From positions 1-41,469 of the forward strand of contig JAZDKT010000078.1 of assembly GCA_043802685.1 (NCBI GenBank): 41,469 bases of DNA. Direction: 5' to 3'. Position numbers and translations under genes: made by a program. Origin of the DNA: Candidatus Falkowbacteria bacterium (lineage in GTDB: Bacteria; Patescibacteriota; Patescibacteriia; Patescibacteriales; VMTK01). The notes beneath the pieces are model-generated. The model searched no databases and was not told where the DNA came from. It saw only the letters and a program-made list of their open reading frames with translations. Positions 24,307 through 40,634 of this stretch are shown here, piece after piece (the stretch's first letter is position 1; each line of letters starts with the position of its first letter).

Positions 24307-24618
24307 TTACTGTTTAGTATTGAATTTAAGCTGTTTTTCCGGCTTTTTCGCCATCTTCCTTGCCCTAACATAATCTTCTTCTATCTCTATCTTTTTGGCT
24401 CGCGAACTTAAATAAGAATCGGTTTCCCACCAATCAATTCCCATTTCCTTAGCTTTATCCACTGAAGCTATCATTAACCTAATTTTAATTGTGAGCAACT
24501 CCACATCAGCAAGTTTAATCTGGATGTCGCCGGCAATAACAATGCCTTTGTCTAAAACGCGCTCTAAAATATCAGCTAAATTCGTAGCTTCTATACCATG
24601 GCTAATTTGTTCTGACAT
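24307..24618 (-). CDS. GvpA-family minor gas vesicle protein (GvpJ/GvpM/GvpS-like)
   Basis: LADILERVLDKGIVIAGDIQIKLADVELLTIKIRLMIASVDKAKEMG is the GvpA/J/M core (alpha-beta-beta-alpha) signature. Confidence 0.75.
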   Translation of the reverse strand: MSEQISHGIEATNLADILERVLDKGIVIAGDIQIKLADVELLTIKIRLMIASVDKAKEMGIDWWETDSYLSSRAKKIEIEEDYVRARKMAKKPEKQLKFNTKQ

Positions 24619-24662
24619 AAATTTTTTTTAATATTTATAATTGTTTAGTCCTAATAATTTTA

Positions 24663-25238
24663 TTACATTAAATTGCCCAGGGGTCCTAAATCTAAATTCA
24701 ATTCTTCATCTTCAATTCCAAAAACCGTTTTTAGCTCCTGCATTTTCTTCTCCATGGCTTTAAAAGTCATTCCTAACTTTTGAATTTCCGTATTAGAAAG
24801 AGATCCTTTTTGCATCCGCCTAATAACCTCTTTTTCCATTAACCTCCTTAATAACTCCACGAGAGTTAAAACTAATTTTGCTATGCCTTGTTCCGCTTTT
24901 TGGGGATTATCAGCATCAATGAGCTTGGGAATACTTGCTTCTGCCCTCTTTATTTCTTGCTCCAGCTTGGCAATATATTCTAAATCTTCCTTGGTTGGTT
25001 CTCGGCTGGGATAATAATCAGTCCCGGCGCTTTTCCAATTTTTACCGGACATTTCCTCTACTTTAGAAATAGAGGTTAGAAGAACTCTTAATCCTAAATA
25101 TATAAGATCTACATCAGCTACTCTTATTGCTACATCCCCGTTTATCACAGCCCCTTTTTCAAGAACTTTATCTAAAGCATCAATAAGAGTTACTCGCTGT
25201 TCTTTTGGTTTGGATAAAATTATTAGTGTATTTGCCAT
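24663..25238 (-). CDS. apparent fusion of a GvpJ/M-like (GvpA-family) domain and a GvpK-like domain
   Basis: aa ~15-62, TLIDALDKVLEKGAVINGDVAIRVADVDLIYLGLRVLLTSISKVEEM, is the GvpA-family core. aa ~113-175, QKAEQGIAKLVLTLVELLRRLMEKEVIRRMQKGSLSNTEIQKLG, is the GvpK signature (GLA.LVLT.VELLR.L.E+QA.RR...G.L). Confidence 0.7.
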   Translation of the reverse strand: MANTLIILSKPKEQRVTLIDALDKVLEKGAVINGDVAIRVADVDLIYLGLRVLLTSISKVEEMSGKNWKSAGTDYYPSREPTKEDLEYIAKLEQEIKRAEASIPKLIDADNPQKAEQGIAKLVLTLVELLRRLMEKEVIRRMQKGSLSNTEIQKLGMTFKAMEKKMQELKTVFGIEDEELNLDLGPLGNLM

Positions 25239-26071
25239 TTAATAAAATTGTAAGGCGGCCATGGGCCGCTATACTCAAAATTAAAACCTTTAGATTTATA
25301 TTCTTTATTTAATTTATTAATTTCTCTTGCAAAGTCTTTTAATTTTTCTTCTGAAATAAGAAAAATCGCATTTAAAATCATGGGCAAAGATTTACCTGTC
25401 AATTCTTTTTCTAAAATTTTACCTTTGGTTCCAGCAACCGCGCATTCTTTTAAATTTCTAAAAAAACTGTCAATATAATTTTCCAAAGCTCTGTCTGCTT
25501 CCCTTAAAACAGCATCATCTATCTGCTTTTGCATAAAATATGCCGTTCCTTCGGGAAGCAGGGCTATTTCTGTTTCTTTTTCCAGAACCACCGGACTAAC
25601 TCTTTTAACTTCATTACTAAAAGTTTGGCGGTTTAAATACGCCTTTACCGACCACTCTTGTTTTCCTGATAAATTTCTTAGATTTTCTTTGAATTTAAGG
25701 TAATATGTTTTAAGCATTTCCTTTATTTTTTCTTCGCTGTTAAAAATAGCGCCGAATTTCATGGGAATTGCCTCTTTTAATCTTTTATTTTTAAAGGGAT
25801 TCTTTTCTGCTGGAAAAGGAGAAAATTGAAATTCCATCGCTTCCTCTATTACCTGCTCATGAATTTGAGCTTTTTCTTTTACCCATTTTAAATTTTCTTG
25901 CGCTTTATTTTGAATTTCTTTTGAGCTGAATTCCTTTAAAGAAACATTGCTAACCACTGCTTCTAAATCCCTGAAAAAGACAGTAAAAACTTGACCCCTA
26001 TCAATTCCTTCTGCGGAAAATTTGGAATTAGTTTTTGCTCTAACGCAATAGAGATATAATCCCTGTTTCAT
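25223..26071 (-). CDS. GvpF/GvpL family protein
   Basis: N-terminal GLYLYCV start, the A.VS pattern (LEAVVSNV), and the C-terminal FEYSGPWPPYNF motif, as in GvpF/L. Confidence 0.8.
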   Translation of the reverse strand: MKQGLYLYCVRAKTNSKFSAEGIDRGQVFTVFFRDLEAVVSNVSLKEFSSKEIQNKAQENLKWVKEKAQIHEQVIEEAMEFQFSPFPAEKNPFKNKRLKEAIPMKFGAIFNSEEKIKEMLKTYYLKFKENLRNLSGKQEWSVKAYLNRQTFSNEVKRVSPVVLEKETEIALLPEGTAYFMQKQIDDAVLREADRALENYIDSFFRNLKECAVAGTKGKILEKELTGKSLPMILNAIFLISEEKLKDFAREINKLNKEYKSKGFNFEYSGPWPPYNFIKWQIH

Positions 26072-26085
26072 AAAGTTTGAATAGC

Positions 26086-26394
26086 TTATTCTTCGCTGCT
26101 GATTCCAGTATCTACTCTTTTTCGCATTTCTTTTCGCTCATAGCCAAGTAAATTGCCTTTTGCATCTAGCCTAATGTTATAAATTCCTAACACATCCATC
26201 CCGTCCGGGATAGATTTCTTTTCAACAATTTCAACTTTAACTACCCATTCTTCGCCTTCTTTTTTAAATCCTATCCCGGCTGGCGAGGAAAAACCGGTTA
26301 AATCAGCCAGCTGTTTTTTTGCTTTCTCAACAAGCTCTTTCGGCTCAAGATTTGATTTTACATCATTAGAAATGTTCTTTATTGTTTTTGTCAT
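26086..26394 (-). CDS. gvpO: gas vesicle protein GvpO
   Basis: AKKQLADLTGFSSPAGIGFKKEGEEWVVKVEIVEKKSIPDGMDVLGIYNIRLDAKGNLLGYERK parallels haloarchaeal GvpO (A+EQL.ELTG ... GW.V.VEVVE+.R.PD..DV...YEV.LD..GE..GY.R). Confidence 0.75.
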   Translation of the reverse strand: MTKTIKNISNDVKSNLEPKELVEKAKKQLADLTGFSSPAGIGFKKEGEEWVVKVEIVEKKSIPDGMDVLGIYNIRLDAKGNLLGYERKEMRKRVDTGISSEE

Positions 26395-26418
26395 AATAAT
26401 ATAAATTTAATAAATTAT

Positions 26419-26652
26419 TTATTCTCCTATTTTTTCTAAAATCTCTAATCTCTCTAAAATTTCCTCTTCTTCTTTTTGATATTCTGCTTCAGTAATTTCT
26501 TCCATTTCCAAACGCATTTGAATATCCAAAAGCTCTCTCTTGAGTTTTTCAGGAGTATCTGTTAATTCTTCTGCCACCATATCATTAATCTTATGAACAA
26601 CCCCCATAAATCCTCTGGCCGGGAGCAGTAATAAATCATCTATAATAAACAT
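26419..26652 (-). CDS. gvpG: gas vesicle protein GvpG
   Basis: MFIIDDLLLLPARGFMGVVHKINDMVAEEL followed by an acidic coiled coil matches GvpG (MF..DDLL..P...L......). Confidence 0.75.
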   Translation of the reverse strand: MFIIDDLLLLPARGFMGVVHKINDMVAEELTDTPEKLKRELLDIQMRLEMEEITEAEYQKEEEEILERLEILEKIGE

Positions 26653-26655
26653 AAA

Positions 26656-28665
26656 TTATATTCCGTATAATATTTTAGAAAAGCTATGCAATGAATCAAT
26701 TCCTCTAATATCATGCGGTAATAAAGGAACTAAAATTAAATTCTTCAAGGGATATTGTTTTTTAATTATACCCAGATATTTTTCTTGACCTTTTCTTTTG
26801 GCTAAACAGAAATTGCATTTGGAAGCAGGATTTATAAAATTGGCAATAATATAATTATAATTAATATTCATGCTTTCTAAAGATCCGTCCAAATCTTCCA
26901 TTTCTCTTATACCCATCTCCTCCGGAATGGTAATCATTAAAAATTCTGTTTTCGCGGAGCCAAATAAAATTTTCTGAATTTTTCTAATATCTCTGGATAA
27001 ATTTACTGTTTTTTGAGCAATTCCTTCTAATTTTAATCCTTGATATTTGCGAAGTATTTTAAAAATACTTTTAAGCCATTCTCTAACCAAGCCGGGAAGT
27101 TCTAAGAATCTAAGCAAATGGCCGGAAGCGGCTGAATCCAAAACATAAATATCATATTTGCTCCCACCCGCCAAATCCATAACTTTTCTTAAAGCCATTA
27201 GCTCTTCAAGCCCTGGCGGAGAAAGTTCCATCAACTCTTCCATAACCTGCTGATCGTAAACCACTTCTGCTCCCGGTCCTGTAAACTTATTAAATAACTC
27301 CTTAATACTCTCTTTATATTCATCTTTAAAATCTCTAAGACTTTTTTGAGTATCTATTTCTATGGCAAAAAGGTTATTAAAACCTCTGATAGAAACTGCT
27401 TCCGCGGCCAAGGGAATGTCTTGATCAAAAATATTGGAAAGAGCATGAGCCGGATCAGTGGTGGTAATAAGAATTTTTTTTTCTTTATGCTTTTTAGCCA
27501 GTGCCATAGCCGTAGCTGCCGCTATTGAAGTTTTGCCCACTCCTCCTTTCCCGCCGCAGATGACAAAGCTTAAATCCTTTTTTAAAAACTTTGCCATTTT
27601 GCCTTGAGGAATTTCTGGAAATTCAGGCAATTTTTTTGGCAAAATAATCTCAAACTCCTTCTCCGCGAATAAAATCCGAGCGTACTCATTTAAAGAATCT
27701 TGACCCCTAATTTCAGCGGGGAAAAGTGGCATCTTCAAAATCTGATAATCTTTTCCGCCCGAGACGGATCCGCCTTTGGCGGAAAATTTTTCTTCAATCA
27801 TTTTCAGATATTTTTCTTTTTCTTTTATTCTGGAAGCGCAAAGCGAGCATTCTCCTTCAACTGTTGCCATGCGATTAGCAATAATACTTTTTACTGAAAT
27901 TTTCATTATATCCAAATCTTTAACTAATTCCTCTGTCTCTAAAATACTCATTGGTTCGGGAATAGTTACTGGCACAAATTCAGTTGTTTCCTGATTTTTT
28001 AAAAGTTTTTCCACTCTTTCTATATCAGCCAGGGTCTTTGTTAAAAATTTATCACACTCATCATCAATATATTTTCTTCTTATCCGCTTCATAATAAACC
28101 GATGTTTTGCCATCATCAGGTCTGCCGCTTTTATCCATCTTTTCATCGCTTGAGGCAGGGATAAAAGAATCTTAGTGTGCCCGGTAGGAGCGGTATCAAG
28201 AATAATCAGATCATATTCTTTTTCTAAAAGCTCAGCAATTTTAATAATAGCCATTACTTCATCCATGCCTGGCATAGCCAGAGAAGTAAATTGTTCTATG
28301 TCCTCACTGTCAAGATAAGTTCCCCGATCAAGTAAAATTTTTATAGTTTCTGAATGTTGCTTGCGAAAATCTTCCATTAATTCTTTAGCCTCCATCTCAT
28401 AAGCCCAGATATTGTCTTGAATTTTAGTAATTTTATTGCCAACCTCTACATTAAAACTATCGCCAATGGAAGGGGCCGGATCAGTAGAAACTATTAAAAT
28501 TCTTTTGGTCTTGTATTTTTGGCCTAAGTATAAAGCGGTTGCGCAAGCGCAAGTAGTTTTGCCGCTGCCGCCCTTGCCGCCAAAGACAATAAACTTCAAT
28601 CTGTTATTAACAAGAAACTGATTTTTTGCCCTATTAGAAATTTTTGCTGAAATTTCCTTTTTCAT
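26656..28665 (-). CDS. tandem-domain ArsA/Get3-family P-loop ATPase
   Basis: Two deviant Walker A loops (FGGKGGSGKTT and CGGKGGVGKTS). The ArsA signature DTAPTGHT is present in half 1 and is degenerate (DSAASGHL) in half 2. Confidence 0.8.
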   Translation of the reverse strand: MKKEISAKISNRAKNQFLVNNRLKFIVFGGKGGSGKTTCACATALYLGQKYKTKRILIVSTDPAPSIGDSFNVEVGNKITKIQDNIWAYEMEAKELMEDFRKQHSETIKILLDRGTYLDSEDIEQFTSLAMPGMDEVMAIIKIAELLEKEYDLIILDTAPTGHTKILLSLPQAMKRWIKAADLMMAKHRFIMKRIRRKYIDDECDKFLTKTLADIERVEKLLKNQETTEFVPVTIPEPMSILETEELVKDLDIMKISVKSIIANRMATVEGECSLCASRIKEKEKYLKMIEEKFSAKGGSVSGGKDYQILKMPLFPAEIRGQDSLNEYARILFAEKEFEIILPKKLPEFPEIPQGKMAKFLKKDLSFVICGGKGGVGKTSIAAATAMALAKKHKEKKILITTTDPAHALSNIFDQDIPLAAEAVSIRGFNNLFAIEIDTQKSLRDFKDEYKESIKELFNKFTGPGAEVVYDQQVMEELMELSPPGLEELMALRKVMDLAGGSKYDIYVLDSAASGHLLRFLELPGLVREWLKSIFKILRKYQGLKLEGIAQKTVNLSRDIRKIQKILFGSAKTEFLMITIPEEMGIREMEDLDGSLESMNINYNYIIANFINPASKCNFCLAKRKGQEKYLGIIKKQYPLKNLILVPLLPHDIRGIDSLHSFSKILYGI

Positions 28666-29553
28666 ATCTTTAAATGCAATTCTACAAAATTAAAAGCAGG
28701 AATAGGGCCAATATATATAAACTTAATTCTCTTATTGTACTTTTTGATTAAAACATGCACTCTTTTATCAAACTCTCTTTCATTTTTTTTTTGAAACCAA
28801 GAAAGCATAACTGAAAATCATTGAATCTCTCATCGGTTCTAAAAATCTTATCAACTCTCTTTCTTTAAACTTTACCGCTAATTCTTTTAAAGATTTCAAG
28901 AGCTCTCCGGCTTCCCTTTCCCTTTTAGAGTCAACTGCCTTTTGGATTAATTCACCTACGCCGGCAATTCTAAATTGATGGGGATTTTTCTGGGCGTTTC
29001 TTTTTGCAATTTGAATTTCTTGATTCTCCTCAACTATTTCTTGAAAAATACTTGGCATATCTTTCCAAAATGCCCTAATGCCCAATTCTACTCTCCCTTC
29101 CACTATTGGAAATGTTTCTAAAAATTCTTTTCTTTTTGGCTTTAATATTTTTTCTTTAACATCTTCCGCGCTCTTGGCCACTGTGCCAAAACGAACCGGT
29201 AAAACATCATATCCTTGTTTCATCACTTCTTCAATAACCTTTTGATGGCGGGTTAGGTGTTCTTTAATAAAAGAATACTGATCTTTTGCCGTGTCAGTGA
29301 CTGCCATTGCCAATCCTCCTTTATTAATAGTATATACTTCTTTTCCTTCCTGCCCCGTTAGATATTTGTTCTCTTGATTCTTTTTATTCGCTCTTGTAAT
29401 ATCTAACGGGGCTTGCCGCAAAATTTTAAACTTTTGGGGCTTGCTTTCTTTAATAACACAATAAAGATATTTACCCTGATCTGAGTCTGATTGCCCCGCA
29501 GGCCTGTCATTTGGGACTCTGATTTGGGATTTTCCTTTTGCTTCAGCGGCCAT
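28662..29553 (-). pseudogene. GvpF/GvpL family gene interrupted by a +1 frameshift in an A10 run (possibly rescued by slippage)
   Basis: Frame 0 (29553..28780) ends ...IFSYAFLVSKKK-TGA. The +1 frame continues ...NEREFDKRVHVLIKKYNKRIKFIYIGPIPAFNFVELHLKI-TGA. This supplies the conserved GvpF/L C-terminus and ends in an ATGA overlap with the ArsA-like start at 28665. The start is placed at MAAEAKGK (29553), downstream of the preceding gene's stop. Confidence 0.7.
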
Positions 29554-29584
29554 AATTTTAATAATAATTGCTTTATAAAAATCT

Positions 29585-29929
29585 CTATTCTTGCGAAGTT
29601 GGTTTAGCCACAACAATGACCTGTTTTATAGCCACCACCAATCCGGCAGCTGCTATAAAAGCGATAAAATTTTCCAAAATTGAAGCGACTGCCAATGTTA
29701 ATTTTCCAAGCTGTAAACCGCCGACTCCAATTAAAAGCAAGGTGATCACGGCCACAAGAAACGGAATGCTTTCTTTTTCTTTTACATTTAAAAATCCAAC
29801 AATTAAACCTAAAACAAACAGAATAACTAATAGATACGGAATAGCGGCAAAGCCAGCCAGCACTGCAAACGCTATGCCTCCGATTAAAGCCCAGCGGCCA
29901 ATAGTTGTAAGATTATATTTTAATGCCAT
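29585..29929 (-). CDS. small 4-TM membrane protein, hypothetical
   Basis: Four hydrophobic helices (WALIGGIAFAVLAGFAAIPYLLVILFVLGLIVGF...FLVAVITLLLIGV...FIAFIAAAGLVVAI). Confidence 0.5.
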   Translation of the reverse strand: MALKYNLTTIGRWALIGGIAFAVLAGFAAIPYLLVILFVLGLIVGFLNVKEKESIPFLVAVITLLLIGVGGLQLGKLTLAVASILENFIAFIAAAGLVVAIKQVIVVAKPTSQE

Positions 29930-30092
29930 ATTTTTGAGATATTATTTGCCCTGCATTTTTTAAGCATTAAAATGAATAGACTTGCCGCGCAATTAGTCTC
30001 GCAACGCAATTTTATAATGCGAACTCTATAAAGAGTAATGCTTAAAAGATAAGTAGGGGTTATGAATTATAATAAAATTCGACCTTTAAAAA

Positions 30093-31160
30093 TTATTTAA
30101 TAATTAAAGAATTTCTTACATCTTCTTCCTTAAAAGAATATCTTTGATTCCTGTTTTCTCCAAAAAAACTGCCACAGCTTTTGCAATAACTTTTTAGAAT
30201 ACTATAAGCGCGAACTATTTTTTTCATTTGTTCTGCTGTTTCCTGATTATCTTGATGCTTATCCGGATGATATTGATGGGAAAGGGCATAATAAGCCTTT
30301 TTAATTTCTTCGGGACTAGCTTCCTCGCCCAGGCTCAATAATTTTCTTGCTTTATTTATTATTTCAAAATTACCTAAACTAAGATTAATATTAACAAAAC
30401 TATAGGGGGGCATTGGGCCAATATACTTAAACCTTAATTTCCCTTCGTATTTTTTACCCAATTCTTGCATTTTACTATCCAATTCAAACTCTCTGGACTT
30501 CTCTATTAAGAAAGAAAAGTTGGCTATCATGTCCTCGCTGATTAATTTATTTAAGGTGAAGTCATGAGCCATGATTCTTAAGAATGCTTCAATGTTCTTG
30601 ATATTAGTTTGCTTATAAGCTTCTGCCTGCCGCTGGATTAGTCTGCCTAACTTCAATTTAAGCGGCAGACCCAGAATACTTGTTTTGACGGACAACTGCT
30701 GTCTTAGCCCCTGAATTTCTGAATTAGTGTTAACTAATTCTTCAAGCAGCTTTTTTTGATCCCACCAGACTTGAACCGCAAACTCAACCTTGCCTGCTGT
30801 TGTTTTTAAAGCTGTTTTAAATTGAATATAAGCTTTCGCTAAAATACATTTTATTTCTTCATTATTAGGAGCAATAATCCCAAAAGCCATTGGCGCAACA
30901 TTATAATCTTTCATTATTTCTTCATTCACTTGCTGGTGGATGGCAATATGCCTTGTTAGTTCTTTTTTATCTAAACGATCAAAATTAATAACCGGGGTAT
31001 CTGAAACTGCCGCTGCTATATCTTGATAATTGAGAATGTTGATAACTTGATGATTAATTCCAATATAGCTAAGGCCGCTGGCATTGGCTTGGCCGAAAGC
31101 ATCGCGGGCGGCTCTTTTATCTTTATTCTGCTCAATTACGCAATAAATATATTTCCCCAT
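30093..31160 (-). CDS. GvpL/GvpF family protein fused to a C-terminal J-domain
   Basis: GKYIYCV start and the FKYIGPMPPYSF motif (GvpF/L). aa ~265-325, EEIKKAYYALSHQYHPDKHQDNQETAEQMKKIVRAYSILKS, has an intact HPD tripeptide (J-domain, nt about 30186-30368). Confidence 0.75.
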   Translation of the reverse strand: MGKYIYCVIEQNKDKRAARDAFGQANASGLSYIGINHQVINILNYQDIAAAVSDTPVINFDRLDKKELTRHIAIHQQVNEEIMKDYNVAPMAFGIIAPNNEEIKCILAKAYIQFKTALKTTAGKVEFAVQVWWDQKKLLEELVNTNSEIQGLRQQLSVKTSILGLPLKLKLGRLIQRQAEAYKQTNIKNIEAFLRIMAHDFTLNKLISEDMIANFSFLIEKSREFELDSKMQELGKKYEGKLRFKYIGPMPPYSFVNINLSLGNFEIINKARKLLSLGEEASPEEIKKAYYALSHQYHPDKHQDNQETAEQMKKIVRAYSILKSYCKSCGSFFGENRNQRYSFKEEDVRNSLIIK

Positions 31161-31264
31161 TTTTATCTAGTTAGAAAATTTTATTAGACTATGCCAAATT
31201 ATCCATAGCAAGTATTTGCAGATATCGCGAGCAATAGCGAGCCAATATCCGCAAGAGCATCCCA

Positions 31265-32341
31265 TTAATTTGTTCTTTTTCTATCAGCAATAGCGGCGAT
31301 TAACGCTCCTTTGGCAACAGTATAAAGCGGATGCGGAGCCATCCTTACTTCCTTTACTTTTAAAGGAAAACTCGTTTTCCCAAGTATCTCTTTAAACCTT
31401 TCAATAAATCCCTGCGGATTTGCCGTACCTCCTGAAACAATTATCGGAATGGGAGTTTCAAATTCAGGAATTTTGCCCTTTTCTTCAACCTCTTTTTTTA
31501 TTTGATCCAAAACATATTCAATCAGGTGATCATAATAAATAGAAAGGGCATGCTCAGTTTTAGTCATACTGCTTTCGCTCTTTTTAAGATTTAAAAAGTT
31601 TTCCTTAAAGGTAGTAATTTTGCTGATTGGCTCATTGGTAACAATGGCAACTTGTTCATCAATCCAGTCCCCGGCTTTAGCCACGCTGAAAGAAAACACC
31701 GGCGCAGACATTAAGGATAGGCAGACATTAGCCATTCCGCCGCCAAATGATATGCCCATGCCCGTAAAATTATCTTCTGCTAATTCAGAAAAAATTACCG
31801 CTAAACCCTCGTTCAAGGGCTTTGCTTGGTACCCCCATTTTTCAAGAAATCCTTTTATTATATTTTGATGGTAAATATTATCAAAATCCGCGTCAATTGG
31901 AGGGCCGGGAACAGAAAAATAACAAATTTCATTTTTTTCAGCAGGCGGCTCTAAAACGCTTTTTATTATCAATTCAATAATTGGCAATGCTTCGGTTTCT
32001 TTAGCGCTAATTACTCCGCTCTTTAGCGGTCTTCTGGTGTTGCCGCCAAAAACATTAGCAAACTTCATAGCATCGCTTCCCACCACATAAATTTTATCTT
32101 GACCCAGGACATATTTGACATTACTTTTTTCTAATATCCCTTGGGTAAATTCAGAATATTCAACATCGAAAAAAGCATCTCTTTGAGCCCTAAAACTTAC
32201 CTGTGAATTTATTTTTTGAGCGCAGTAAATAAAAGCGGTGCCGACATCTAATCCTTTGCCCATTTGCGGTAAAACCAATTTATTTGTTTTTGTACGATTC
32301 TCTTTAGCCATAGAACCGCGGGCATGTTGTTGTTTTGTCAT
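31265..32341 (-). CDS. actin-fold (MreB/ParM/Hsp70 superfamily) ATPase
   Basis: Phosphate-1 GLDVGTAFI, the MreB-like RPLKSGVIS, phosphate-2 GISFGGGMANVC, and the adenosine motif IIVSGGTANPQGF. Confidence 0.7.
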   Translation of the reverse strand: MTKQQHARGSMAKENRTKTNKLVLPQMGKGLDVGTAFIYCAQKINSQVSFRAQRDAFFDVEYSEFTQGILEKSNVKYVLGQDKIYVVGSDAMKFANVFGGNTRRPLKSGVISAKETEALPIIELIIKSVLEPPAEKNEICYFSVPGPPIDADFDNIYHQNIIKGFLEKWGYQAKPLNEGLAVIFSELAEDNFTGMGISFGGGMANVCLSLMSAPVFSFSVAKAGDWIDEQVAIVTNEPISKITTFKENFLNLKKSESSMTKTEHALSIYYDHLIEYVLDQIKKEVEEKGKIPEFETPIPIIVSGGTANPQGFIERFKEILGKTSFPLKVKEVRMAPHPLYTVAKGALIAAIADRKRTN

Positions 32342-32411
32342 ACTTTTTATTTAATACTTATTTTTTCCTCTTCTTTTTCGACCTTTTCGCCCGGTTAAAA
32401 ATTTACTATTC

Positions 32412-32873
32412 CTATTTATTTCTCATCTTCTCAAAATAATTTCTAACCGGGTTTAAAAAACAAGCCGCCCTCTCAATACTTTGGCCTAAATTTAATTTTT
32501 TCTCTTCCGGCTCAAATTTATTCTCTGGATTTTTACTGCTAACCTTTTTTGCTAAATACTTAAAGTTATCCTCTAACGGCTTTACCTTTAATTTTTTAGG
32601 GAAATAATAAATTACTTTTTCTATATTTTTTTCTTTTTTAAAAACTTTCGGCTTTATTAAACATCTACATTCCAGTTCTTTTATTCCTTTAAAAGCGATC
32701 TTATACCAATCCCGTTTTCCTTTAATCGGCTTAATCCATCCTTTTTTAAATAAACAATCGCAAATATAACGAATGTAATCAATGCCGAATTTTGTCTGGC
32801 TGGAAATTAATTTAATATTGGATTCTTCTTTATTTTCCCAAATTTTTTTTAAAACTTTTAATTCACTATTCAT
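32412..32873 (-). CDS. small putative winged-helix protein, paralog of 36124..36462
   Basis: The N-terminus LKVLKKIWENKEESNIKLISSQTKFGIDYIRYICDCLFKKGWI aligns with RVLEIIWDWGGEASVNIITREANISIDYARLICESLARESCI. Function unknown. Confidence 0.4.
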   Translation of the reverse strand: MNSELKVLKKIWENKEESNIKLISSQTKFGIDYIRYICDCLFKKGWIKPIKGKRDWYKIAFKGIKELECRCLIKPKVFKKEKNIEKVIYYFPKKLKVKPLEDNFKYLAKKVSSKNPENKFEPEEKKLNLGQSIERAACFLNPVRNYFEKMRNK

Positions 32874-33273
32874 ATAACCTAGAAGACTTTAATTTATCTT
32901 TTGCTTGATCCAATATATCAAAATTCTCTTTTTCTGCCATTCTTAATTCATCTATAAACTCCTTGCTTTTGCTTTGCAGCTTTTTTAATAACATTATCCT
33001 CATCTCTAAATTTTTTTCTAATTCCTTAACTTCCTGATAGGTCTTTTCTAAAGCTATTTGTTCCCGCGCTATTTCCTTTTGATGCTCATTTATTTTTTTA
33101 ATTAAATCAATGTTCTCTTCTTTTACTTTTGAATTAATTTGTTGCGCTTCTTCCTTTAAGGGAGAAAGCGGTTTTCTGCTCATAGCAAACTCTATCTGGG
33201 GCGCTTTGTTTAATTCTTCCCCTGCCTCCTTTAATCCTTCTATGATGCTTTTGGGGCTTGCATTTGATTCCAT
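32866..33273 (-). CDS. coiled-coil protein, hypothetical
   Basis: 135 aa with heptad-rich K/E sequence. It overlaps the 3' end of the AAA+ gene by 34 nt and the next gene by 8 nt. Confidence 0.4.
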
Positions 33274-35450
33274 ATTATTTTAAAATGATTATTAGTAATT
33301 TTAAATTTTTGGCAGTTTTTTAAACTTTTTAACCCGACCGCTTCACTGCCTGCCCGCAAAGCCTTAGTAAGCGGGCGCGAATCATCGCGGATAAATTTAA
33401 CAAATTCTCTAATAGCTAAAATTGAAGCTTGCTTGCAAATGGCTTCAATATCAGATCCTACTAATCCTTTGCTTTCTTTAGCTAAATTTTCTAAATTCAC
33501 ATCTTTAGCCAATGGCTTGCCTCTTGTATGAATTTTAAATATCTCCAACCTTGTTTTCCCATCCGGCTTTGGCACCTCTAAAATAAAATAAAAGCGGCCG
33601 GTTCGGCGCAATGCAGGGTCAATCAAATCCAAGCGGTTGGTAGCTCCAAGGATTACAACCCCTTTAAGCTCTTCAATGCCATCAAGTTCAGTTAAAAATT
33701 GGCTTACTACTCTCTGAGTTACAGAGGAGTCAACGTTTTGGCTGCGAGCAGGAACCAAACTGTCCAGCTCATCAAAAAAAACAATGCAAGGACTGGCTTG
33801 CTTAGCTTTTTTAAAAACTTCCCTTACTGCTTTTTCAGATTCTCCTATGTATTTTGATAAAAGCTCAGGACCCTTGACAGAAATAAAATTTACGCCGCAT
33901 TCAGACGCTACTGCTTTGGCTATTAAAGTCTTGCCTGTTCCGGGAGGGCCGTAAAGCAAAATTCCTTTAGACGGACTGGTTTTGGTATAATCAAAAAGTT
34001 TGCTATATTTCAATGGCCACTCAATGGTTTCTTTTAAGGTCTGCTTTATTTGTTCCAAACCTCCCACATCCTTCCACCTAACATCAGGAATTTCAGTAAA
34101 AATTTCTCTTAAAGCTGACGGCTCAACTTCTTTTAATGCTTCTATAAAATAATCCGCGGTTACTTCCATCTCTAAAAGTTTTTTATAAGGAATATATTCT
34201 TTAGCAAATTCAATCTCCGGCATGATTTTTCGCAGAGCCGACATGGCTGCCTCTCTAACCAAAGCTTCTAAGTCTGCCCCCACAAAGCCATGGGTTATTT
34301 CAGATAGCTTGTCTAAATTAACATCTTCTCCCAGGGGCATGCCTCTAGTATAAATTTCCAATATTTCTTTTCTGCCATTTTTATCAGGAATACTAATGGC
34401 AATCTCTCTATCAAATCGGCCCGGTCTTCGCAATGCCGGATCCAGGGTATTGGGAATATTAGTGATTCCAATAACTACCAAATTGCCCCTTGATTCCAAG
34501 CCATCCATTAAAGCCAGCAATTGGGCAACCACTCTTCTTTCCACTTGTTTTTCTCCGCCCATATCCTCTCTTTTAGGGGCAATGCCGTCAATTTCATCTA
34601 TAACTAAAATGGCAGGGGCATTAGCTTGGGCATCCTCAAATACTTCTCTTAATCTTGCTTCTGACTCCCCATAAAATTTGCCCATGATTTCAGGCCCGGA
34701 AATAGAAGTAAAATAAGCATCAGTTTCGTTAGCTACCGCTCTGGCAATCAAAGTTTTGCCGCAACCAGGGGGTCCGTATAATAAAACTCCCTTGGGAGGA
34801 TCTATGCCTAATCTCTCAAAAACCTCGGGATATTTTAAGGGAAGTTCAATCATCTCTCTAATCCTGCCGATTTCTTTTTTAAGTCCTCCGATGTCTTCAT
34901 AAGTGACTCCTACTCCCTGCTTGTCTTTTGCTTCTCCCTTGATCTTGATTAAAGTAGCGGGAGTAATCAAAACAGCTCCTTGAGGGTCAGTAGCTTCCAC
35001 TAAAAAATCCTGGGATTTACTGCCAAAAAAGGTTACTCTTATTTTATTTCCTTTTAAAACCGGGGTGCCGTCTAATATTTTGGCCAAATATTCACTACTT
35101 TCTTGTTTTTTAAAAGATCCGTCTAAACTTAAAGGAGATAAAACTAAAGTATTAGCTTTCTCATAAGAAGTCTTTTGAATTTCAACCTTTTCATCTAAAC
35201 CTGTCTTAAGGTTGTCTCGCGCTATGCCATCTATTTGAACAATCTCTTTGCCGCGATCTTCTGAATAAGCGGGCATTAATTTGGCTACTACTTCTTTACC
35301 CTCCACTTTTAACCTAATTATATCTCCTGCATCTGCCTGAATTTTTGCAAAATATTCAGGGTCTACTCTGGCTATTGCCCTGCCCGCGTCCTTGCTCCGG
35401 GCTTCTGCTATCTTAAGAACTATTGATTTTGTTTGCGCTTTTTTAATCAT
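33240..35450 (-). CDS. Cdc48/VAT/p97-like double-ring AAA+ ATPase
   Basis: Cdc48-type N-domain ([22 protein letters not shown]...[11 protein letters not shown]). Two AAA modules carry Walker A GPPGCGKT and GPPGTGKT and Walker B ILVIDEID and IVFFDELD, with second-region-of-homology motifs. Confidence 0.88.
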
Positions 35451-35547
35451 AAATCATGAAACAATCCTTCGGCGTATTTATATTCGCATGCAGACATAAT
35501 TTGCGGCATTGGGATTATATCTGTGTGAATTAACCCGCTAACTTTTT

Positions 35548-36114
35548 CTAAAATATTTTTTTTAACTTCACTTTTAATATCCCGTTTTTAAAATCTATTT
35601 TACGGGACTGGAAATCTACGCTGTCCGGCAGTAAAATCTCTTTGGCATATTTCCTGTCTTGATTACCGGCTTCAATTATAAGAATGTCTTTCTTGAGATC
35701 AAGTTTAATGGCTTTTTCATCAATGCCGGGAAGTTCAGCGATAATTAAAATGTGATCCTTCTCGTTAAAAACATCAACTATCGGCTCTCTATTTTCCACA
35801 ACCTCAACTTCCTTTTTACCGGCTTTTTTTTCAACAGGCCGAATATTGCCAAAAGTTTGCACTCGCGGCCGGCCGCCAATACCGCTTCTTATTGAAAATC
35901 CATAAACCCCTTTAGCATCCTTTCCTTTTCCCAAACCCCTGATTTTTCCTTCTTTTCTAATCTCTCCCCCGGCTTCTTCAACTTTTTCCGCTAAATCAAT
36001 AAATTTCCCCAATCCCTTAATTAATCCTCCAACCAAAGGCAAATCTTCAAGCATCTCTAATTCTTCCCTTGCCTGATCAGTGTTCTTTTTTTCACTTTTT
36101 TTATATTTAACCAT
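35548..36114 (-). CDS. Hsp20/alpha-crystallin domain protein (GvpH-like position)
   Basis: The C-terminal alpha-crystallin pattern is VDVFNEKDHILIIAELPGIDEKAIKLDLKKDILIIEA......YAKEILLP..VD.....IDFKNGILKVKLKK. Confidence 0.7.
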   Translation of the reverse strand: MVKYKKSEKKNTDQAREELEMLEDLPLVGGLIKGLGKFIDLAEKVEEAGGEIRKEGKIRGLGKGKDAKGVYGFSIRSGIGGRPRVQTFGNIRPVEKKAGKKEVEVVENREPIVDVFNEKDHILIIAELPGIDEKAIKLDLKKDILIIEAGNQDRKYAKEILLPDSVDFQSRKIDFKNGILKVKLKKIF

Positions 36115-36123
36115 ACCCTAAAA

Positions 36124-36462
36124 TCAATAGTTTAGAATTAATTTTCCTTTTTTATCTTTACCTAAACCAAACCTACTCAGCCTTTCAGGAAGAACAATTT
36201 TTCTTGCCCCGTTAAAAAATTTTTGACTTCTAACGAGGTGAAGATTCCGGTCTTTTTTTCTTGCGGCTATTAACTTTCCTTTATCTTTTATATTGCACAA
36301 TTTGGAGCGCGAAAAATCAATACAACTTTCCCTTGCCAAGCTCTCGCAAATAAGCCGGGCATAATCAATACTAATGTTCGCTTCTCTGGTAATAATATTA
36401 ACTGAAGCCTCTCCTCCCCAATCCCAAATTATCTCTAAAACTCTTTGTTCATTTGTAGTCAT
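36124..36462 (-). CDS. small putative winged-helix protein, paralog of 32412..32873
   Basis: See the N-terminal alignment to 32412..32873. The C-terminal tail is KKGKLILNY. Confidence 0.4.
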   Translation of the reverse strand: MTTNEQRVLEIIWDWGGEASVNIITREANISIDYARLICESLARESCIDFSRSKLCNIKDKGKLIAARKKDRNLHLVRSQKFFNGARKIVLPERLSRFGLGKDKKGKLILNY

Positions 36463-36472
36463 AAATCTAATG

Positions 36473-36820
36473 CTAATATCCTAATACTATCTTTCCTTTT
36501 TTCTTCCCGCCGACATTTGAGCTGCGGCCGCTTCCTCCTTCTGCCGCCCCTCGTATCTTAACTGCTGTTTGAGTAGCTTTGGCAAGAAGTTTGTTCATTT
36601 CTTTTTCCACATCTTCCAATCTTGTTTGCAGTTGCACTTTTCTTCTTCTTGTCCTTTTTAACTCCCCTGTTAATCTATCTTTTTCATTCCTTCGCATATA
36701 CAAATCTAAAATAGCCGTAGTGGGAAGATCTGGTTTGCCGCTTTTTTTCACTGCTCCGGTGTATGTCCTTAAATCATGAAGACTATTAACATCTTGAAAC
36801 GTTTTTATTGATGTTTTCAT
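36473..36820 (-). CDS. small basic coiled-coil protein (possibly GvpV-like)
   Basis: ILDLYMRRNEKDRLTGELKRTRRRKVQLQTRLEDVEKEMNKLL is reminiscent of the short coiled-coil GvpV-type proteins found next to gvpN in cyanobacteria and Serratia. This is from memory only. The C-terminal tail is KKGKIVLGY. Confidence 0.35.
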   Translation of the reverse strand: MKTSIKTFQDVNSLHDLRTYTGAVKKSGKPDLPTTAILDLYMRRNEKDRLTGELKRTRRRKVQLQTRLEDVEKEMNKLLAKATQTAVKIRGAAEGGSGRSSNVGGKKKGKIVLGY

Positions 36821-36829
36821 AATTTTTAG

Positions 36830-37771
36830 TTAACAGTATTTTTTAATTAAATCTTTAACCAAATTTTCTATTTCTTTGCGGCGCGGCGACCATGGGCTGC
36901 GAGTAGTCTGTGAAACTAATACATCTTTAGCTAATTGTTTAAATTGCGAGTCAGAAGCCGAAACCTTTCCTTTGATAGCTCCTAAAACCTTGCCAAGAAT
37001 AATACAACTGCGGACAGTCGGAGGAAATTCACAAGGATTGCTTGTTCTCATTCCTCTTACTATATCAACGATTTTTTCCGCGTCTTCCTTGGGAATCCCT
37101 GATTTAGCCTGGGTTATTGCAACCTCGGTTTTTCTGTCAAAATACTCTAAATCCATTGTTACCATTCTATCCCTTAAAGCATCCTGCGCTTTATGAGTGC
37201 CGGCATATTCTTCAGGATTAGAAGTAAAGATTGCGCAAAAATCAGGATGAACTTTTAAGTAGTGGCGCTCATCTCCGTCTCTTTTCATCGGCAGGTCCAT
37301 TACTTTCTCTTGTAAAATTGAAAGTAAAATATTATTAGCTTCCGGTTTTGATCTGGTAAACTCATCATATATTAAAGTAAAGCCATGCTTGCAGGCGATA
37401 GTCAAGCGATTATCCATCCAGCGCTTAGACATATCTTGTTCTACTTTTAGGACGCTGGAAATAAAATTATCCTTTAAATATCTGTAGTGATATCCCTGCT
37501 CGCCTCCTACTAAATCAGAAGTTTTATGTTCTTCGTCGCCATGAAACAAAACCACCGGCCTGCCAATCTTGCTTGCCACATGCAGAGCCATGGTTGTTTT
37601 ACCGGTTCCCGTAGGACCTCTAAAATGAACCGGGATGCCAACTTTAAAATAATTTAAAGCTCGACTGGTAATCCGCTTTACATACGGAGTTTCAATAAAG
37701 TCAGCCATTGGCCGCGCCTCAATAACCGCTTGCTCTTCTTCTGTTGATAAATAAGGCATATAATAATCCAA
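36830..37771 (-). CDS. gvpN: gas vesicle AAA+ ATPase GvpN
   Basis: FRGPTGTGKTTMALHVA (Walker A), LIYDEFTRS (Walker B) and the size (~310 aa) are typical of GvpN (MoxR/CbbQ-like). Confidence 0.85.
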   Translation of the reverse strand: MDYYMPYLSTEEEQAVIEARPMADFIETPYVKRITSRALNYFKVGIPVHFRGPTGTGKTTMALHVASKIGRPVVLFHGDEEHKTSDLVGGEQGYHYRYLKDNFISSVLKVEQDMSKRWMDNRLTIACKHGFTLIYDEFTRSKPEANNILLSILQEKVMDLPMKRDGDERHYLKVHPDFCAIFTSNPEEYAGTHKAQDALRDRMVTMDLEYFDRKTEVAITQAKSGIPKEDAEKIVDIVRGMRTSNPCEFPPTVRSCIILGKVLGAIKGKVSASDSQFKQLAKDVLVSQTTRSPWSPRRKEIENLVKDLIKKYC

Positions 37772-37831
37772 TAAAATTTAGATGATTTTAGATAGAATAA
37801 ATTTGACCTTGAATGTCAAAATTTTTTATTT

Positions 37832-38350
37832 TTATTTCTTTTTTTTACTTTTTTCTTTTGTTGTTGCGTGCGTTTCCTCTAATGCATCTTCTTTTTCTGC
37901 CGCTATCTCTTTGCCTTTTGAGCCAGCCCAATAATGAGCGGCTTCTTTTCGTTCTATTCTATAACCGCCAAGAAGAGATTTAGTGGATCTTCTGATTTCC
38001 TCCACTACCGCATTAACATCTTTCATTGTTGCTTTAAAATCAGCTATCCTTTTGTCTTTACTATCGGCTATAAAACTTTTTACACCGCCTTTTATGTCTT
38101 TAACATCGGACTTTATTCCTTGAATCATATTATGAAAATTTTTCTTTCTTGCCTCTTCGCTTTTGCTTAAAAAATCTTTAAGCTCTATGGACATTTCTCT
38201 TAATTCACTGCCCATGTTTTTCATGTAATCATCAGCTGATCCCAAAATATTTCTACTTTCCTTTTTTATCTCGTTAATACTATCCCTTCTGTCTTTATGG
38301 TTAATTTTAATTTCAACTGCTAAATTTTTCATTTCTTGCGCCCAAGCCAT
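37832..38350 (-). CDS. coiled-coil protein, paralog of 39096..39632
   Basis: Shared blocks are RKKNFHNMIQGI vs RKKDFNKMMEDI, and IERKEAAHYWAG vs MEREKVAVEWEG. Lys/Glu-rich with a predicted helical repeat character. Confidence 0.5.
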   Translation of the reverse strand: MAWAQEMKNLAVEIKINHKDRRDSINEIKKESRNILGSADDYMKNMGSELREMSIELKDFLSKSEEARKKNFHNMIQGIKSDVKDIKGGVKSFIADSKDKRIADFKATMKDVNAVVEEIRRSTKSLLGGYRIERKEAAHYWAGSKGKEIAAEKEDALEETHATTKEKSKKKK

Positions 38351-38532
38351 AATTTTATATAAATTTAAAATTTAGGATTCTCGCCCTGTTAAATATAGAA
38401 TTATCTAAACAGAGCGAACTTTAAATTTCAAATTTTTAAATTAAAAATTATTTTATATTTCGACCTTTTGATTATTAGACCTGTTGCGTAATAAGTTGCG
38501 TGACAATCCTATTAAAATTCTTTGACAAAAAA

Positions 38533-38838
38533 TTAATAATTGCCAATCTCCGGCAACCCGGTATCAGCGCCCAGCCCCTTCCTGCCTTTTCTACCGTCTT
38601 TCGGAACCACTCCTCTGCCTTTGCAAACAGAACAAGCCAATCTATGATGAGCAAAAACCCCTGTTCCATTGCAAGCCGTGCATGTCTGGTGTGGAATATC
38701 CGCAATCATAACTATTCCCTTTCCTAAACAAACTTGGCAATTAGAAAGAATTGAGGGAACTCCAAAAGGATCTTTGCCTTTGCCTTTGCAAAAGGCGCAA
38801 ACAGCTTTTTTATAATTAATCGCTATTTTCTTAGGCAT
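38533..38838 (-). CDS. DnaJ-type cysteine-rich zinc-finger protein (4 x CxxCxGxG)
   Basis: CAFCKGKG, CQVCLGKG, CTACNGTG and CSVCKGRG are the four-repeat zinc-centre pattern of the DnaJ central domain. No J-domain is present. Confidence 0.65.
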   Translation of the reverse strand: MPKKIAINYKKAVCAFCKGKGKDPFGVPSILSNCQVCLGKGIVMIADIPHQTCTACNGTGVFAHHRLACSVCKGRGVVPKDGRKGRKGLGADTGLPEIGNY

Positions 38839-38870
38839 AAAGCTTTTATTATAAATATTTTAATATTTTT

Positions 38871-38981
38871 AGGAATTACGCGTTTGGCAATATTTTATTA
38901 TCAGCACCGAGTGCTGTCGCAGCACTCGGTGCTGATAATAAAATAACAGTTTTGCTTTTTACATTCAAGCGCGTAATTCCT
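38871..38981. repeat. nested palindrome: perfect 22-bp arms with a 3-nt loop, inside 12-bp outer arms
   Basis: The inner pair is TTATTATCAGCACCGAGTGCTG tcg CAGCACTCGGTGCTGATAATAA (38895-38941). The outer pair is AGGAATTACGCG (38871-38882) and CGCGTAATTCCT (38970-38981). Confidence 0.9.
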
Positions 38982-39095
38982 AATTTTACTAAACTTTGGC
39001 GCTTTTGGCGATAATTGGCGATAATTTAGCGAGAGAGATGTTTTCTAATCTGCGATTCTGCTCCAAAGCGCTCCAAAGGCGCCAAAGTCCTGATT

Positions 39096-39632
39096 TTATT
39101 TCTGTCTTTTTTGGGCCATTAAAGCCACCATGCCTTCCCATTCTACGGCCACTTTTTCCCGCTCCATTTTAAAATTCTCAAGCATTTTATGAATTTCTGA
39201 TTGCATTTGATCAAACTCTATTTTTATATTTCCTGAACTCTTTTTTCCTCTGATTTCTTGTTCTTTTTTAATTTTTACTAAAGTTTTCTTAAAATCTTTA
39301 AGTCTTAACTCTTCCCCCTTGCTAAGCATTTCTCTAAGATATTTAACTACTGCGGTTTCTTGATCCTGAAAATCAGTTAACATCTGTTTTACATTTTCTT
39401 CACGATTTTTTTGAGCAAATAAAATATCCTCCATCATCTTATTGAAATCTTTTTTTCTTAAAGATTGAAATTTAGCCAAAGCTTCCCTAAGTTCCTCTCC
39501 CATCCTTTTCCTTTTTTGCTTAAATTCTTCCAGCAATCTTCTGGTGTCTTCAACTATCTCTCCAACTACTTTTATGCGAACTTCATAAGCGGCCACGATA
39601 TCTTTGGCGATTTTAAAATTACTACTACCCAT
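39096..39632 (-). CDS. coiled-coil protein, paralog of 37832..38350, second gene after gvpA
   Basis: See the paralog blocks listed for 37832..38350. 178 aa, K/E-rich. Confidence 0.5.
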   Translation of the reverse strand: MGSSNFKIAKDIVAAYEVRIKVVGEIVEDTRRLLEEFKQKRKRMGEELREALAKFQSLRKKDFNKMMEDILFAQKNREENVKQMLTDFQDQETAVVKYLREMLSKGEELRLKDFKKTLVKIKKEQEIRGKKSSGNIKIEFDQMQSEIHKMLENFKMEREKVAVEWEGMVALMAQKRQK

Positions 39633-39882
39633 ATTTTAATAAAGCTTTAATAAATATACAAAAGCTTGTATTTACTATTTTGGCTTATCATTAATCATTC
39701 ATCTTATTAGTCCATAAAAAATTCTGTCTAAACAAATAAAATAATCAGCAGTTTGGGACATGCTTAAAGCTTGGGAAAAATTCCCCGCAAAGGGTAAAAA
39801 AATTTGCGCTTTGCCATGTTGCATTAAGGATGTCTCAAACAAAAAAATTTTTAGATTACTCCTAAAGAGTCATCTTAAAACG

Positions 39883-40086
39883 CTAAGCAGTGGCGGTAAG
39901 GCCAATAGCCTCTGCGTATTTCAGCCAAGTCTCAACAGAAGCAACTACTGCTCGAACTTCTACCGCTAAAAGTTCAATGCCGACTAATGATACTCTTACC
40001 CAAGCGTCAATTACAACGCCTTTGTCAAGAATTCTATCAACTACTTCCACTAAGCTTGAACTGGCCATTGATTTTTCTACAGCCAT
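39883..40086 (-). CDS. gvpA: major gas vesicle structural protein GvpA
   Basis: [63 protein letters not shown] is near-identical in pattern to canonical GvpA. The start is placed at MAVEK (40086); an upstream in-frame ATG at 40101 would add MKIKD. Confidence 0.93.
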
Positions 40087-40634
40087 ATCTTTTATTTTCA
40101 TTCAGTCAAGCCAAAGCTAAATAATATGAAATGACTGGATGAAATTTATTAATAGTTTATTAAAATTCGACCTTTGTTATTTTATTAAAAATAATATCAC
40201 CGCATGATTTCATTTTGAAGAAAAAGTTTTTCTGTAACGATCTTGATGCTCCGGCGAGGAAGAAGAAATAAAATATCGTTTTTTTCTCCCTTGTATTAAT
40301 CGTTGAAATAATTTAATTAATTTTTGTTTTATCTTGTCCCGCATAATAATTTTTATATTTTAATAATTTTAACCAACAAAAAAACCTAAAAAAATTTAGG
40401 TTTTCCATTTTTTGGGTGCCGACCCTTTTTATTAAATTGTCATTTCTTGCCTGATTAAATAAATCATCTTGCGCAACGCCTGAAACAATATAATTATTCT
40501 TAATCATTATTATAGCAAACTGTTTTAAACTATGCAATGCCTTTTATTACCTGTCTCTTATTGTTAACACTTTGAAGCCAACAAGAAACACAAATTAATT
40601 TATAAATGATATTCTTTGTATTTTTTATCCATTT

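Follow-up and report, generated by a model that had tools for sequence, protein, structure and literature searches.

The described systems closest to the locus considered here include gas-vesicle (gvp) gene clusters and archaeal ATPases of the Cdc48 family. Reviews of gas vesicles present GvpN as the AAA+ protein of the system, conserved across gvp clusters (PMC9501494, PMC10903477), and in Halobacterium (p-vac), Anabaena, B. megaterium and Serratia vesicles form with no Cdc48 gene in the cluster (PMC9501494). Castillo & Saier (2010; PMC2963123) drew attention to ArsA and Hsp20 in gvp clusters, though not to Cdc48. Among archaea, the unfoldase VAT of Thermoplasma acidophilum is represented by several structures (PDB 5G4F, 5G4G, 5VC7), and in a microarray study of Halobacterium NRC-1 the adjacent genes hsp5 (VNG6201) and cdc48d (VNG6199) of plasmid pNRC200 were induced 3.0- and 3.4-fold by heat shock (PMC1971269). 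Here we describe a Cdc48/VAT-type ATPase gene embedded in the gvp cluster of a 41,469-nucleotide contig from a Candidatus Falkowbacteria bacterium (JAZDKT010000078.1, assembly GCA_043802685.1; the whole stretch is hereafter "the window"), and document the linkage of its close relatives to gvp genes and to a recurrent set of chaperone genes. An earlier prediction, made from the nucleotide sequence and its open reading frames (ORFs), had recognized the ATPase and proposed that it might extract or recycle the shell protein GvpA. We found no description of a Cdc48-type ATPase in gvp clusters in the full-text literature, from which subscription journals were mostly outside our scope, so that an earlier mention is possible; the conserved, clade-specific recruitment of Cdc48 into gvp clusters with a chaperone set appears to be new.

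The gene and its predicted parts, in window coordinates and with residue (aa) numbers of the protein, are as follows:

33240..35450, minus strand: Cdc48/VAT-type double-ring AAA+ ATPase, ATG start, 736 aa, matching TIGR01243 and VAT
34932..35417, minus strand: N domain, aa 12-173 (CDC48_N double-psi barrel and CDC48_2; Pfam)
34086..34910, minus strand: D1 AAA ring module, about aa 181-455, with Walker A GPPGCGKT, pore loop K-F-Y-G, Walker B DE, sensor-1 N and Arg fingers in RRPGRFD
33396..34073, minus strand: D2 AAA ring module, about aa 460-685, with Walker A GPPGTGKT, pore loop K-Y-I-G, Walker B DE, sensor-1 N and Arg fingers, and carrying D621Y
33243..33395, minus strand: C-terminal tail, aa 686-736, with a clade-conserved, helix-like "FKIxxxHF" motif and lacking HbYX

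Family assignment is unambiguous. The NCBIfam model TIGR01243, "CDC48 family AAA ATPase", matches aa 10-724 over positions 2-704 of its 733 with 913 bits (cutoff 802.65; E = 1.4e-274), and Pfam detects CDC48_N (PF02359; aa 12-94, 72.7 bits, cutoff 35.1), CDC48_2 (PF02933; aa 116-173, 38.1 bits, cutoff 22.4), two AAA domains and two AAA_lid_3 domains, each passing its threshold. Among PDB entries VAT matches best (5G4F; 724.7 bits over aa 8-683), followed by human p97 at about 625 bits. A chance ORF is excluded because of the E-value of about 1e-274 and the full-length alignment to VAT. The Cdc48-type N domain and two complete AAA modules of the original prediction are thus borne out, and the motifs it had read in them lie at aa 226-233 (GPPGCGKT), 283-289 (VIDEIDG, containing DEID), 501-508 (GPPGTGKT) and 558-564 (FFDELDS, containing DELD). 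The protein does not group with FtsH- or ClpX-type ATPases, an outcome that would have spoken against that prediction: the FtsH model TIGR01241 gives 479 bits against a cutoff of 600 and matches the AAA region alone, and ClpX models give 42-45 bits against cutoffs of about 360-370. A PAN identity was rejected likewise, since the NF003069 score of 574 bits (cutoff 500) arises only because both AAA modules match, at model positions 127-362 in the AAA part, leaving the PAN N domain unmatched. ClpB/Hsp104 was rejected on the TIGR02639 (ClpA) score of 37 bits, against a cutoff of 993, and on an alignment to VAT that shows no inserted domain. Public annotation already calls these genes "CDC48 family AAA ATPase", and the gvp-linked Cdc48 is a normal member of that family.

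Conservation of individual residues was scored across 81 aligned orthologues. Neither D1 nor D2 varies in any of the 81 at the Walker A Lys, the Walker B Asp-Glu, the sensor-1 Asn or the Arg fingers; the D1 pore loop (K-F-Y-G) keeps its Tyr in 81 of 81, and the D2 pore loop (K-[Y/W/F]-[V/I/L]-G) has Tyr, Trp or Phe in every sequence. Both rings therefore look active and the pore VAT-like. Such a pore would be the signature of a processive unfoldase, and homology to VAT predicts a homohexamer of stacked rings that unfolds its substrates at the expense of ATP. Mean column conservation declines from D1 (0.86) through D2 (0.79) to the N domain (0.63). A single departure concerns the window protein itself: at residue 621 (codon 33588-33590), beside the D2 Arg fingers in "GRFD", it alone among the 81 has Tyr, where the position is otherwise a near-invariant Asp/Glu. 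Compared with VAT and archaeal Cdc48, the N + D1 + D2 layout and catalytic motifs are the same, and the pore loops (KFYG/KYIG here, KYYG/KWVG in VAT) are aromatic in both rings of each protein; unlike VAT, the window Cdc48 is bacterial, lies in a gas-vesicle operon, belongs to a distinct clade, and carries the clade-specific "FKIxxxHF" motif in a C-terminal tail that has no HbYX. The HbYX 20S-docking C-terminus occurs in 0/79 members of that clade and in 11/100 outgroup representatives. We dropped it as a discriminator from archaeal relatives, because with only 11 carriers among the outgroups, most of which lack it too, it is not diagnostic of the wider family.

The gene stands within a co-oriented cluster, on the minus strand throughout, that includes gvp genes on both of its sides:

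23887..40101, minus strand: whole gvp cluster, about 16 kb, from GvpA to bactofilin
39883..40101, minus strand: GvpA, the major shell protein and proposed client (Pfam Gas_vesicle, 61.1 bits)
38533..38838, minus strand: DnaJ-type CXXCXGXG zinc-finger protein, 101 aa (PF00684, 34.6 bits)
36830..37771, minus strand: GvpN, the canonical MoxR-type gvp AAA+ ATPase (TIGR02640, 332.3 bits versus 266.8)
35548..36114, minus strand: Hsp20/alpha-crystallin small heat-shock protein, GvpH-like (Pfam HSP20, ArsA_HSP20)
32866..33273, minus strand: ORF of 135 aa without a family match, whose first ATG, if it is the start, gives a 34-nt overlap with the Cdc48 stop
30093..31160, minus strand: GvpF/L fused to a C-terminal DnaJ J-domain (Pfam GvpL_GvpF 193.7 bits, DnaJ 55.5 bits)
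26656..28665, minus strand: two-domain ArsA/Get3-like ATPase (Pfam ArsA_ATPase, 447.7 bits, two stretches)

In order of transcription the cluster reads GvpA, cc178, the zinc-finger protein, cc172, GvpN, p115, p112, Hsp20, Cdc48, cc135, p153, a volactin-like actin, GvpF/L-J (the J-domain fusion), a transmembrane protein, GvpF/L, ArsA, GvpG, GvpO, GvpF/L, a GvpJ-K fusion, a GvpA-like protein and bactofilin, and so holds three GvpF/L genes. GvpA is 71-98% identical in most related loci that have it. The Hsp20 gene ends 97 nt upstream of Cdc48 on the same strand, and its product scores just below the NF041800 "archaeal Hsp20" cutoff (137.9 bits versus 140); the J-domain fusion retains an intact HPD motif at aa 298. 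Placement of Cdc48 between Hsp20 and a downstream gene that it overlaps, and the presence of GvpN nearby, agree with the original prediction. Translational coupling through the 34-nt overlap was considered and rejected, the overlap not being conserved and homologues of the downstream ORF occurring in only three Patescibacteria loci, at variable positions. In DNA this AT-rich a scan for promoters and terminators discriminates poorly; it returned 45 promoter-like sites against 26.6 expected, and no terminator-like site between Hsp20 and Cdc48.

To define the distribution of this arrangement we took one genome per GTDB species and searched the 80 top-ranking loci, whose Cdc48 is 60-75% identical to that of the window, with 22 proteins of the window's cluster; linkage was counted over the 61 species-level loci flanked by 8 kb or more, and Hsp20 over the 75 with enough sequence upstream. 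gvp genes accompany Cdc48 in 60/61 of the long-flank loci, and at least three gvp families do so in 57/61. This linkage rules out a housekeeping Cdc48 placed in the window's cluster by accident, and orthologues are not kept at a position free of gvp genes, a pattern that would have refuted the original prediction. The gvp-linked loci carry some 14 phylum-level labels, with record titles naming Patescibacteria, Actinomycetota, Chloroflexota, Bacillota, Nitrospirota, Desulfobacterota, Planctomycetota, Cloacimonadota, Ignavibacteriales, Omnitrophota, Bacteroidota, Lentisphaerota, Chlamydiota, Saganbacteria and Elusimicrobia. The linkage recurs in independent contexts as well, namely in a 202-kb metagenomic contig of the Candidate Phyla Radiation (CPR), in a single-cell genome of Ca. 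Hakubella, and in an 8.16-Mb long-read contig. The Hakubella paper reports gvp genes and hsp20, and its main text makes no mention of a Cdc48 ATPase. The sole long-flank exception, locus L022 (595-12103) in a metagenome-assembled genome (MAG) of Thermodesulfovibrionales, has no gvp genes within 10 kb. Its clade-type Cdc48 follows a fusion of a helix-turn-helix (HTH) domain to Hsp20, with Hsp70, a long ArsA, a radical-SAM protein and a tetratricopeptide-repeat protein encoded upstream.

The chaperone genes around Cdc48 recur with comparable regularity. In 62/75 loci the gene immediately upstream of Cdc48, on the same strand, encodes Hsp20, which co-diverges with Cdc48 most closely (Mantel r = 0.86, compared with 0.57 for GvpN and 0.47 for GvpF/L), these correlations reflecting shared history in part. 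The GvpF/L-J-domain fusion is present in 49/61 loci, in 39 of which a GvpF/L gene starts no more than 900 bp downstream of Cdc48; we found no description of this fusion in the literature searched, and it implies recruitment of Hsp70 to a GvpA-binding protein. An ArsA-like gene occurs in 36/61 loci (between Hsp20 and Cdc48 in 21/61), the DnaJ-type zinc-finger protein in 35/61, and Hsp70 genes within 10 kb in 15/61; locus L088 has three Hsp70 genes. The recurring core order is Hsp20, optionally ArsA, Cdc48, then GvpF/L-J.

When 79 gvp-linked sequences are placed with 100 outgroup representatives in a neighbour-joining tree, the gvp-linked Cdc48 proteins come out as one clade (bootstrap 78-81), whose members are at least 59% identical to the window protein. 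In an exhaustive search of clusters at 50% identity, values outside the gvp-linked set drop to 41-55%, save for a few fragments and for P0151 at 59-66%. P0151 falls inside the clade; it stands between transposases on a contig of 3x coverage, with no gvp genes in its vicinity. The nearest clusters beyond the clade (50-55% identity) are mostly archaeal, from Bathyarchaeota, Halobacteria, Thermoplasmatota, an Asgard lineage, Woesearchaeota and Methanopyrus, together with bacterial Dadabacteria. Five more distant bacterial Cdc48 lineages were tested, and in four of them (the Dadabacteria cluster, P0193, P0149 and P0162) no gvp gene lies within 9-10 kb of Cdc48. The linkage is therefore specific to the gvp-linked clade, and the notion that all bacterial Cdc48 proteins are gvp-linked is ruled out; in the fifth, P0159 (47% identity), Cdc48 follows a gas-vesicle protein gene. 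The archaeal affinity raised by the original prediction is upheld in part, through VAT as best structural match, the mostly archaeal nearest clusters and the haloarchaeal gene pair described below; the tree gave neither a direction of transfer nor a sister group, the sister of the clade being a single representative and the grouping of the core clade with methanotroph sequences having a bootstrap of 24/100.

Haloarchaeal plasmids offer the nearest archaeal counterpart of the Hsp20-Cdc48 pair. We located it, in the same order and on the same strand and with Cdc48 at 50-52% identity, on two replicons:

L091, 6759-9268: Hsp20 followed by Cdc48
L092, 5576-8226: Hsp20 followed by Cdc48

These represent a plasmid of Natrinema thermotolerans and Halobacterium NRC-1 pNRC200. 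The haloarchaeal pair lies outside the gvp cluster, at some 27 kb (pNRC200) or 30 kb (Natrinema) from gvpN, with no adjacent gvp genes; unlike the window, it also lacks an adjacent GvpF/L-J fusion or ArsA. We equate the Halobacterium pair with the heat-induced hsp5 and cdc48d by replicon, product names and neighbouring gene numbers, rather than by locus tags. Its induction supports the view of Hsp20-Cdc48 as an archaeal-type stress holdase-unfoldase module incorporated by bacterial gvp clusters, and a conserved archaeal Hsp20-Cdc48 operon may be a general module of this kind.

Two cultured methanotrophs, Methylocella tundrae T4 (plasmid p1; L089) and Methylosinus sp. C49 (pMSC49b; L090), carry CDC48 in plasmid-borne gvp operons, under the locus tags SIN04_RS01640 and GYH34_RS19560 respectively, with the RefSeq order gvpA...gvpN...GvpG-GvpJ-gas vesicle protein-Hsp20-hypothetical-CDC48 family AAA ATPase; the Hsp20 homologue is annotated GvpH in Methylosinus. 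Their Cdc48 proteins are 51-54% identical to that of the window, fall outside the core clade and are encoded at the end of the operon, with no GvpF/L-J fusion annotated downstream. Genes for a sigma-54-dependent regulator and for a sensor kinase/response regulator pair stand ahead of both operons, which might be useful as experimental systems. Within the window's own operon the obvious comparison is GvpN, which is likewise ATP-dependent; unlike Cdc48, it is a single-module protein of the MoxR/AAA_5 type (313 aa) with neither a Cdc48 N domain nor tandem rings. A further likeness, at the level of inferred function, is to the small heat-shock protein (sHsp)-Hsp70/DnaJ-ClpB (Hsp104) system, in that a small Hsp, a J-domain recruiter of Hsp70 and a putative double-ring AAA+ threading motor are encoded together; unlike ClpB, the window Cdc48 lacks an M-domain insertion relative to VAT, and its N domain is of the Cdc48 type.

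With moderate confidence, we favour a reading in which Cdc48 is the threading motor of a dedicated quality-control or disaggregation system for shell proteins of the GvpA family, acting with Hsp20, J-domain GvpF/L, Hsp70 and possibly ArsA. What the data establish is family membership, the completeness of the catalytic sites and the conserved linkage; which proteins are clients, in which direction the enzyme acts and what it does physiologically, we infer. Extraction, recycling or remodelling of GvpA, as originally suggested, would be in keeping with the conserved linkage to Hsp20, J-domain GvpF/L, ArsA and Hsp70. Published work supplies a plausible need: GvpA aggregates and is proteotoxic when assembly factors are insufficient (PMC12848028), GvpF binds GvpA (PMC9501494), and the solubilization of GvpA and the possible degradation of vesicles are named as open questions (PMC10903477). 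The cluster would provide a holdase (Hsp20), the J-domain GvpF/L, the DnaJ-type zinc-finger protein, the ArsA/Get3-like ATPase, and Cdc48 as the ATP-driven arm. Off-pathway, aggregated or collapsed-shell proteins of the GvpA/J/M type, which are extremely hydrophobic, would be held by Hsp20, and J-domain GvpF/L would hand GvpA-family clients to Hsp70; the N domain of Cdc48 would engage held clients, and the aromatic pore loops of D1 and D2 would thread them, releasing unfolded protein to be re-chaperoned and reused, or cleared. Such a system would be analogous in function to the sHsp-Hsp70-ClpB triad, built instead from an archaeal-type Hsp20-Cdc48 pair. More tentatively, and with greater doubt than we attach to a quality-control role as such, Hsp20-Cdc48, the Gvp-tethered J-domain and Hsp70 could together constitute an unrecognized archaeal-type bacterial disaggregase dedicated to unfolding amyloid-like GvpA.

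Several points weigh against a dedicated shell-protein motor. The model systems make vesicles with no Cdc48 in the cluster, and it is therefore not universally required; L022 and P0151, both without gvp genes, likewise indicate that the module can exist outside gvp clusters. The literature searched yielded no experimental support for the gvp-linked Cdc48, whether as a requirement or as an interaction with Gvp proteins, and we identified no adaptor or degron for it. The part of the Mantel correlations owed to shared history, and the unique D621Y change adjoining the D2 Arg fingers of the window protein, count on the same side.

Other roles have to be set beside this one. Cdc48 might be a constructive assembly motor, obligatory in normal vesicle growth, that strips GvpA from its carriers (GvpF/L, ArsA) or remodels the nucleation complex, complementing GvpN. 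Its position in the operon core, between GvpN/Hsp20 and GvpF/L rather than at the periphery, the very strong purifying selection evident in D1 column conservation (0.86), and its retention even in reduced CPR genomes would all suit such a motor; model systems, however, assemble vesicles with GvpN alone (PMC9501494), a tight pairing of sHsp and J-domain is the classic signature of aggregate handling, and the homologous archaeal pair is heat-shock induced and not gvp-adjacent. We consider this role unlikely. Regulated turnover is a more improbable role, in which Cdc48 would dismantle intact vesicles or remove GvpC-like or regulatory proteins, lowering buoyancy and possibly feeding an unlinked protease, much as in GvpD-dependent control in haloarchaea or the engineered removal of GvpC by ClpXP. 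Cdc48/VAT enzymes commonly act upstream of proteases, and the clusters hold putative regulators, HTH proteins and, in some loci, two-component genes; yet no protease gene is conserved in them, none of the 79 clade members has the HbYX terminus for docking to the 20S particle, and most host phyla, to our knowledge, lack 20S proteasomes. That active vesicle degradation is acknowledged as an open question (PMC10903477) speaks in favour of turnover.

Finally, Hsp20-Cdc48 could be a general proteostasis pair hitch-hiking on a mobile gvp island, with no gas-vesicle-specific client, as the heat-shock-responsive haloarchaeal pair away from gvp genes and the gvp-free L022 and P0151 would allow. A 60/61 linkage over about 14 phyla, with variable gene order round an Hsp20-Cdc48-GvpF/L-J core, would be hard to keep without selection, the J-domain and a Gvp protein are parts of one polypeptide, and the Dadabacteria cluster, P0193, P0149 and P0162 show no comparable linkage; we regard hitch-hiking as very improbable.

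Further features of the window's cluster lie outside the proposed chaperone module:

31265-32341, minus strand: volactin-family actin-like protein (PF25216, 320 bits)
23887-24252, minus strand: bactofilin gene, at the end of the cluster
36124-36462 and 32412-32873, minus strand: two small proteins, of 112 and 153 aa, with no significant family hit
24663-25238, minus strand: GvpJ/A-like domain fused to GvpK, 191 aa

Homologues of the volactin-family protein occur in 9/61 related loci (in Patescibacteria, Nitrospirota, Saganbacteria and Elusimicrobia), and in L086 an FtsZ gene follows the bactofilin gene; the actin-like protein, bactofilin and FtsZ suggest cytoskeletal positioning of vesicles. 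Homologues of the 112- and 153-aa proteins cross-match in tblastn and are conserved in clusters of the Patescibacteria type, and one of them, in L086, has a faint MarR match; these proteins may be winged-helix regulators or adaptors. The GvpJ-K fusion resembles the GvpK of Anabaena flos-aquae, for which a GvpA-like domain has been noted (PMC10903477).

The host belongs with the Patescibacteria, a group (CPR) known for ultra-small cells. Its Cdc48 has its nearest homologues, at 66-77% identity, in records named Patescibacteria, Parcubacteria or Minisyncoccales, and the leucyl-tRNA synthetase of the window is 89% identical to a Patescibacteria protein, Falkowbacteria being next. An archaeal host, to which the near-cutoff "archaeal Hsp20" match and the volactin-family gene had pointed at first, was rejected on these two comparisons. 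That synthetase has an unusual architecture:

17728-20856, plus strand: leucyl-tRNA synthetase with an inserted serine-hydrolase/alpha-beta-hydrolase domain at aa 403-550

Similar insertions (PF06821, at times with NUDIX) are found in other Patescibacteria leucyl-tRNA synthetases. G+C content rises to 42-46% at 6001-9000 and 12001-13000, against about 28-36% over much of the left part of the window; the segments of higher G+C encode a peptide-chain release factor and subunits of pyruvate:ferredoxin oxidoreductase, and the rise probably marks conserved housekeeping genes rather than foreign DNA. The gas-vesicle cluster of this Patescibacteria genome is complete, and the same cluster occurs in many other Patescibacteria MAGs and single-amplified genomes (L002-L011, L015, L086); no description of gas vesicles in CPR bacteria was found in the literature searched.

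The canonical gas-vesicle parts list derives from four model systems that lack Cdc48. That some 14 phyla keep a second and far more powerful AAA+ machine in their clusters suggests that many native systems have shell-protein proteostasis built in, and makes GvpA solubility and active vesicle degradation, both left open in PMC10903477, directly testable. For bacterial Cdc48 homologues, few of which have assigned functions, the gvp-linked clade brings a defined candidate client and co-chaperones, and ties to the heat-inducible archaeal Hsp20-Cdc48 pair. If a dedicated disaggregase of the kind outlined above exists, it would be the missing machinery by which most non-model phyla solubilize, recycle or dismantle gas vesicles. 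Hurt et al. obtained vesicles in E. coli from only 5/15 mined clusters, which had been picked to minimize non-gvp genes (PMC10344784); among those that they cloned, the cluster of D. vacuolatum DSM 3385 (FWXY01000008:1268-24724) gives vesicles in E. coli at 30 C. The same disaggregase, if real, may partly account for the failure of many native gvp clusters in E. coli once their "non-gvp" genes have been removed. Given the proteotoxicity of GvpA aggregation (PMC12848028), the Hsp20-Cdc48 module is an obvious candidate for co-expression in biotechnology. The gvp-linked relatives in these phyla point to an overlooked chaperone module for building or recycling protein-walled flotation organelles.

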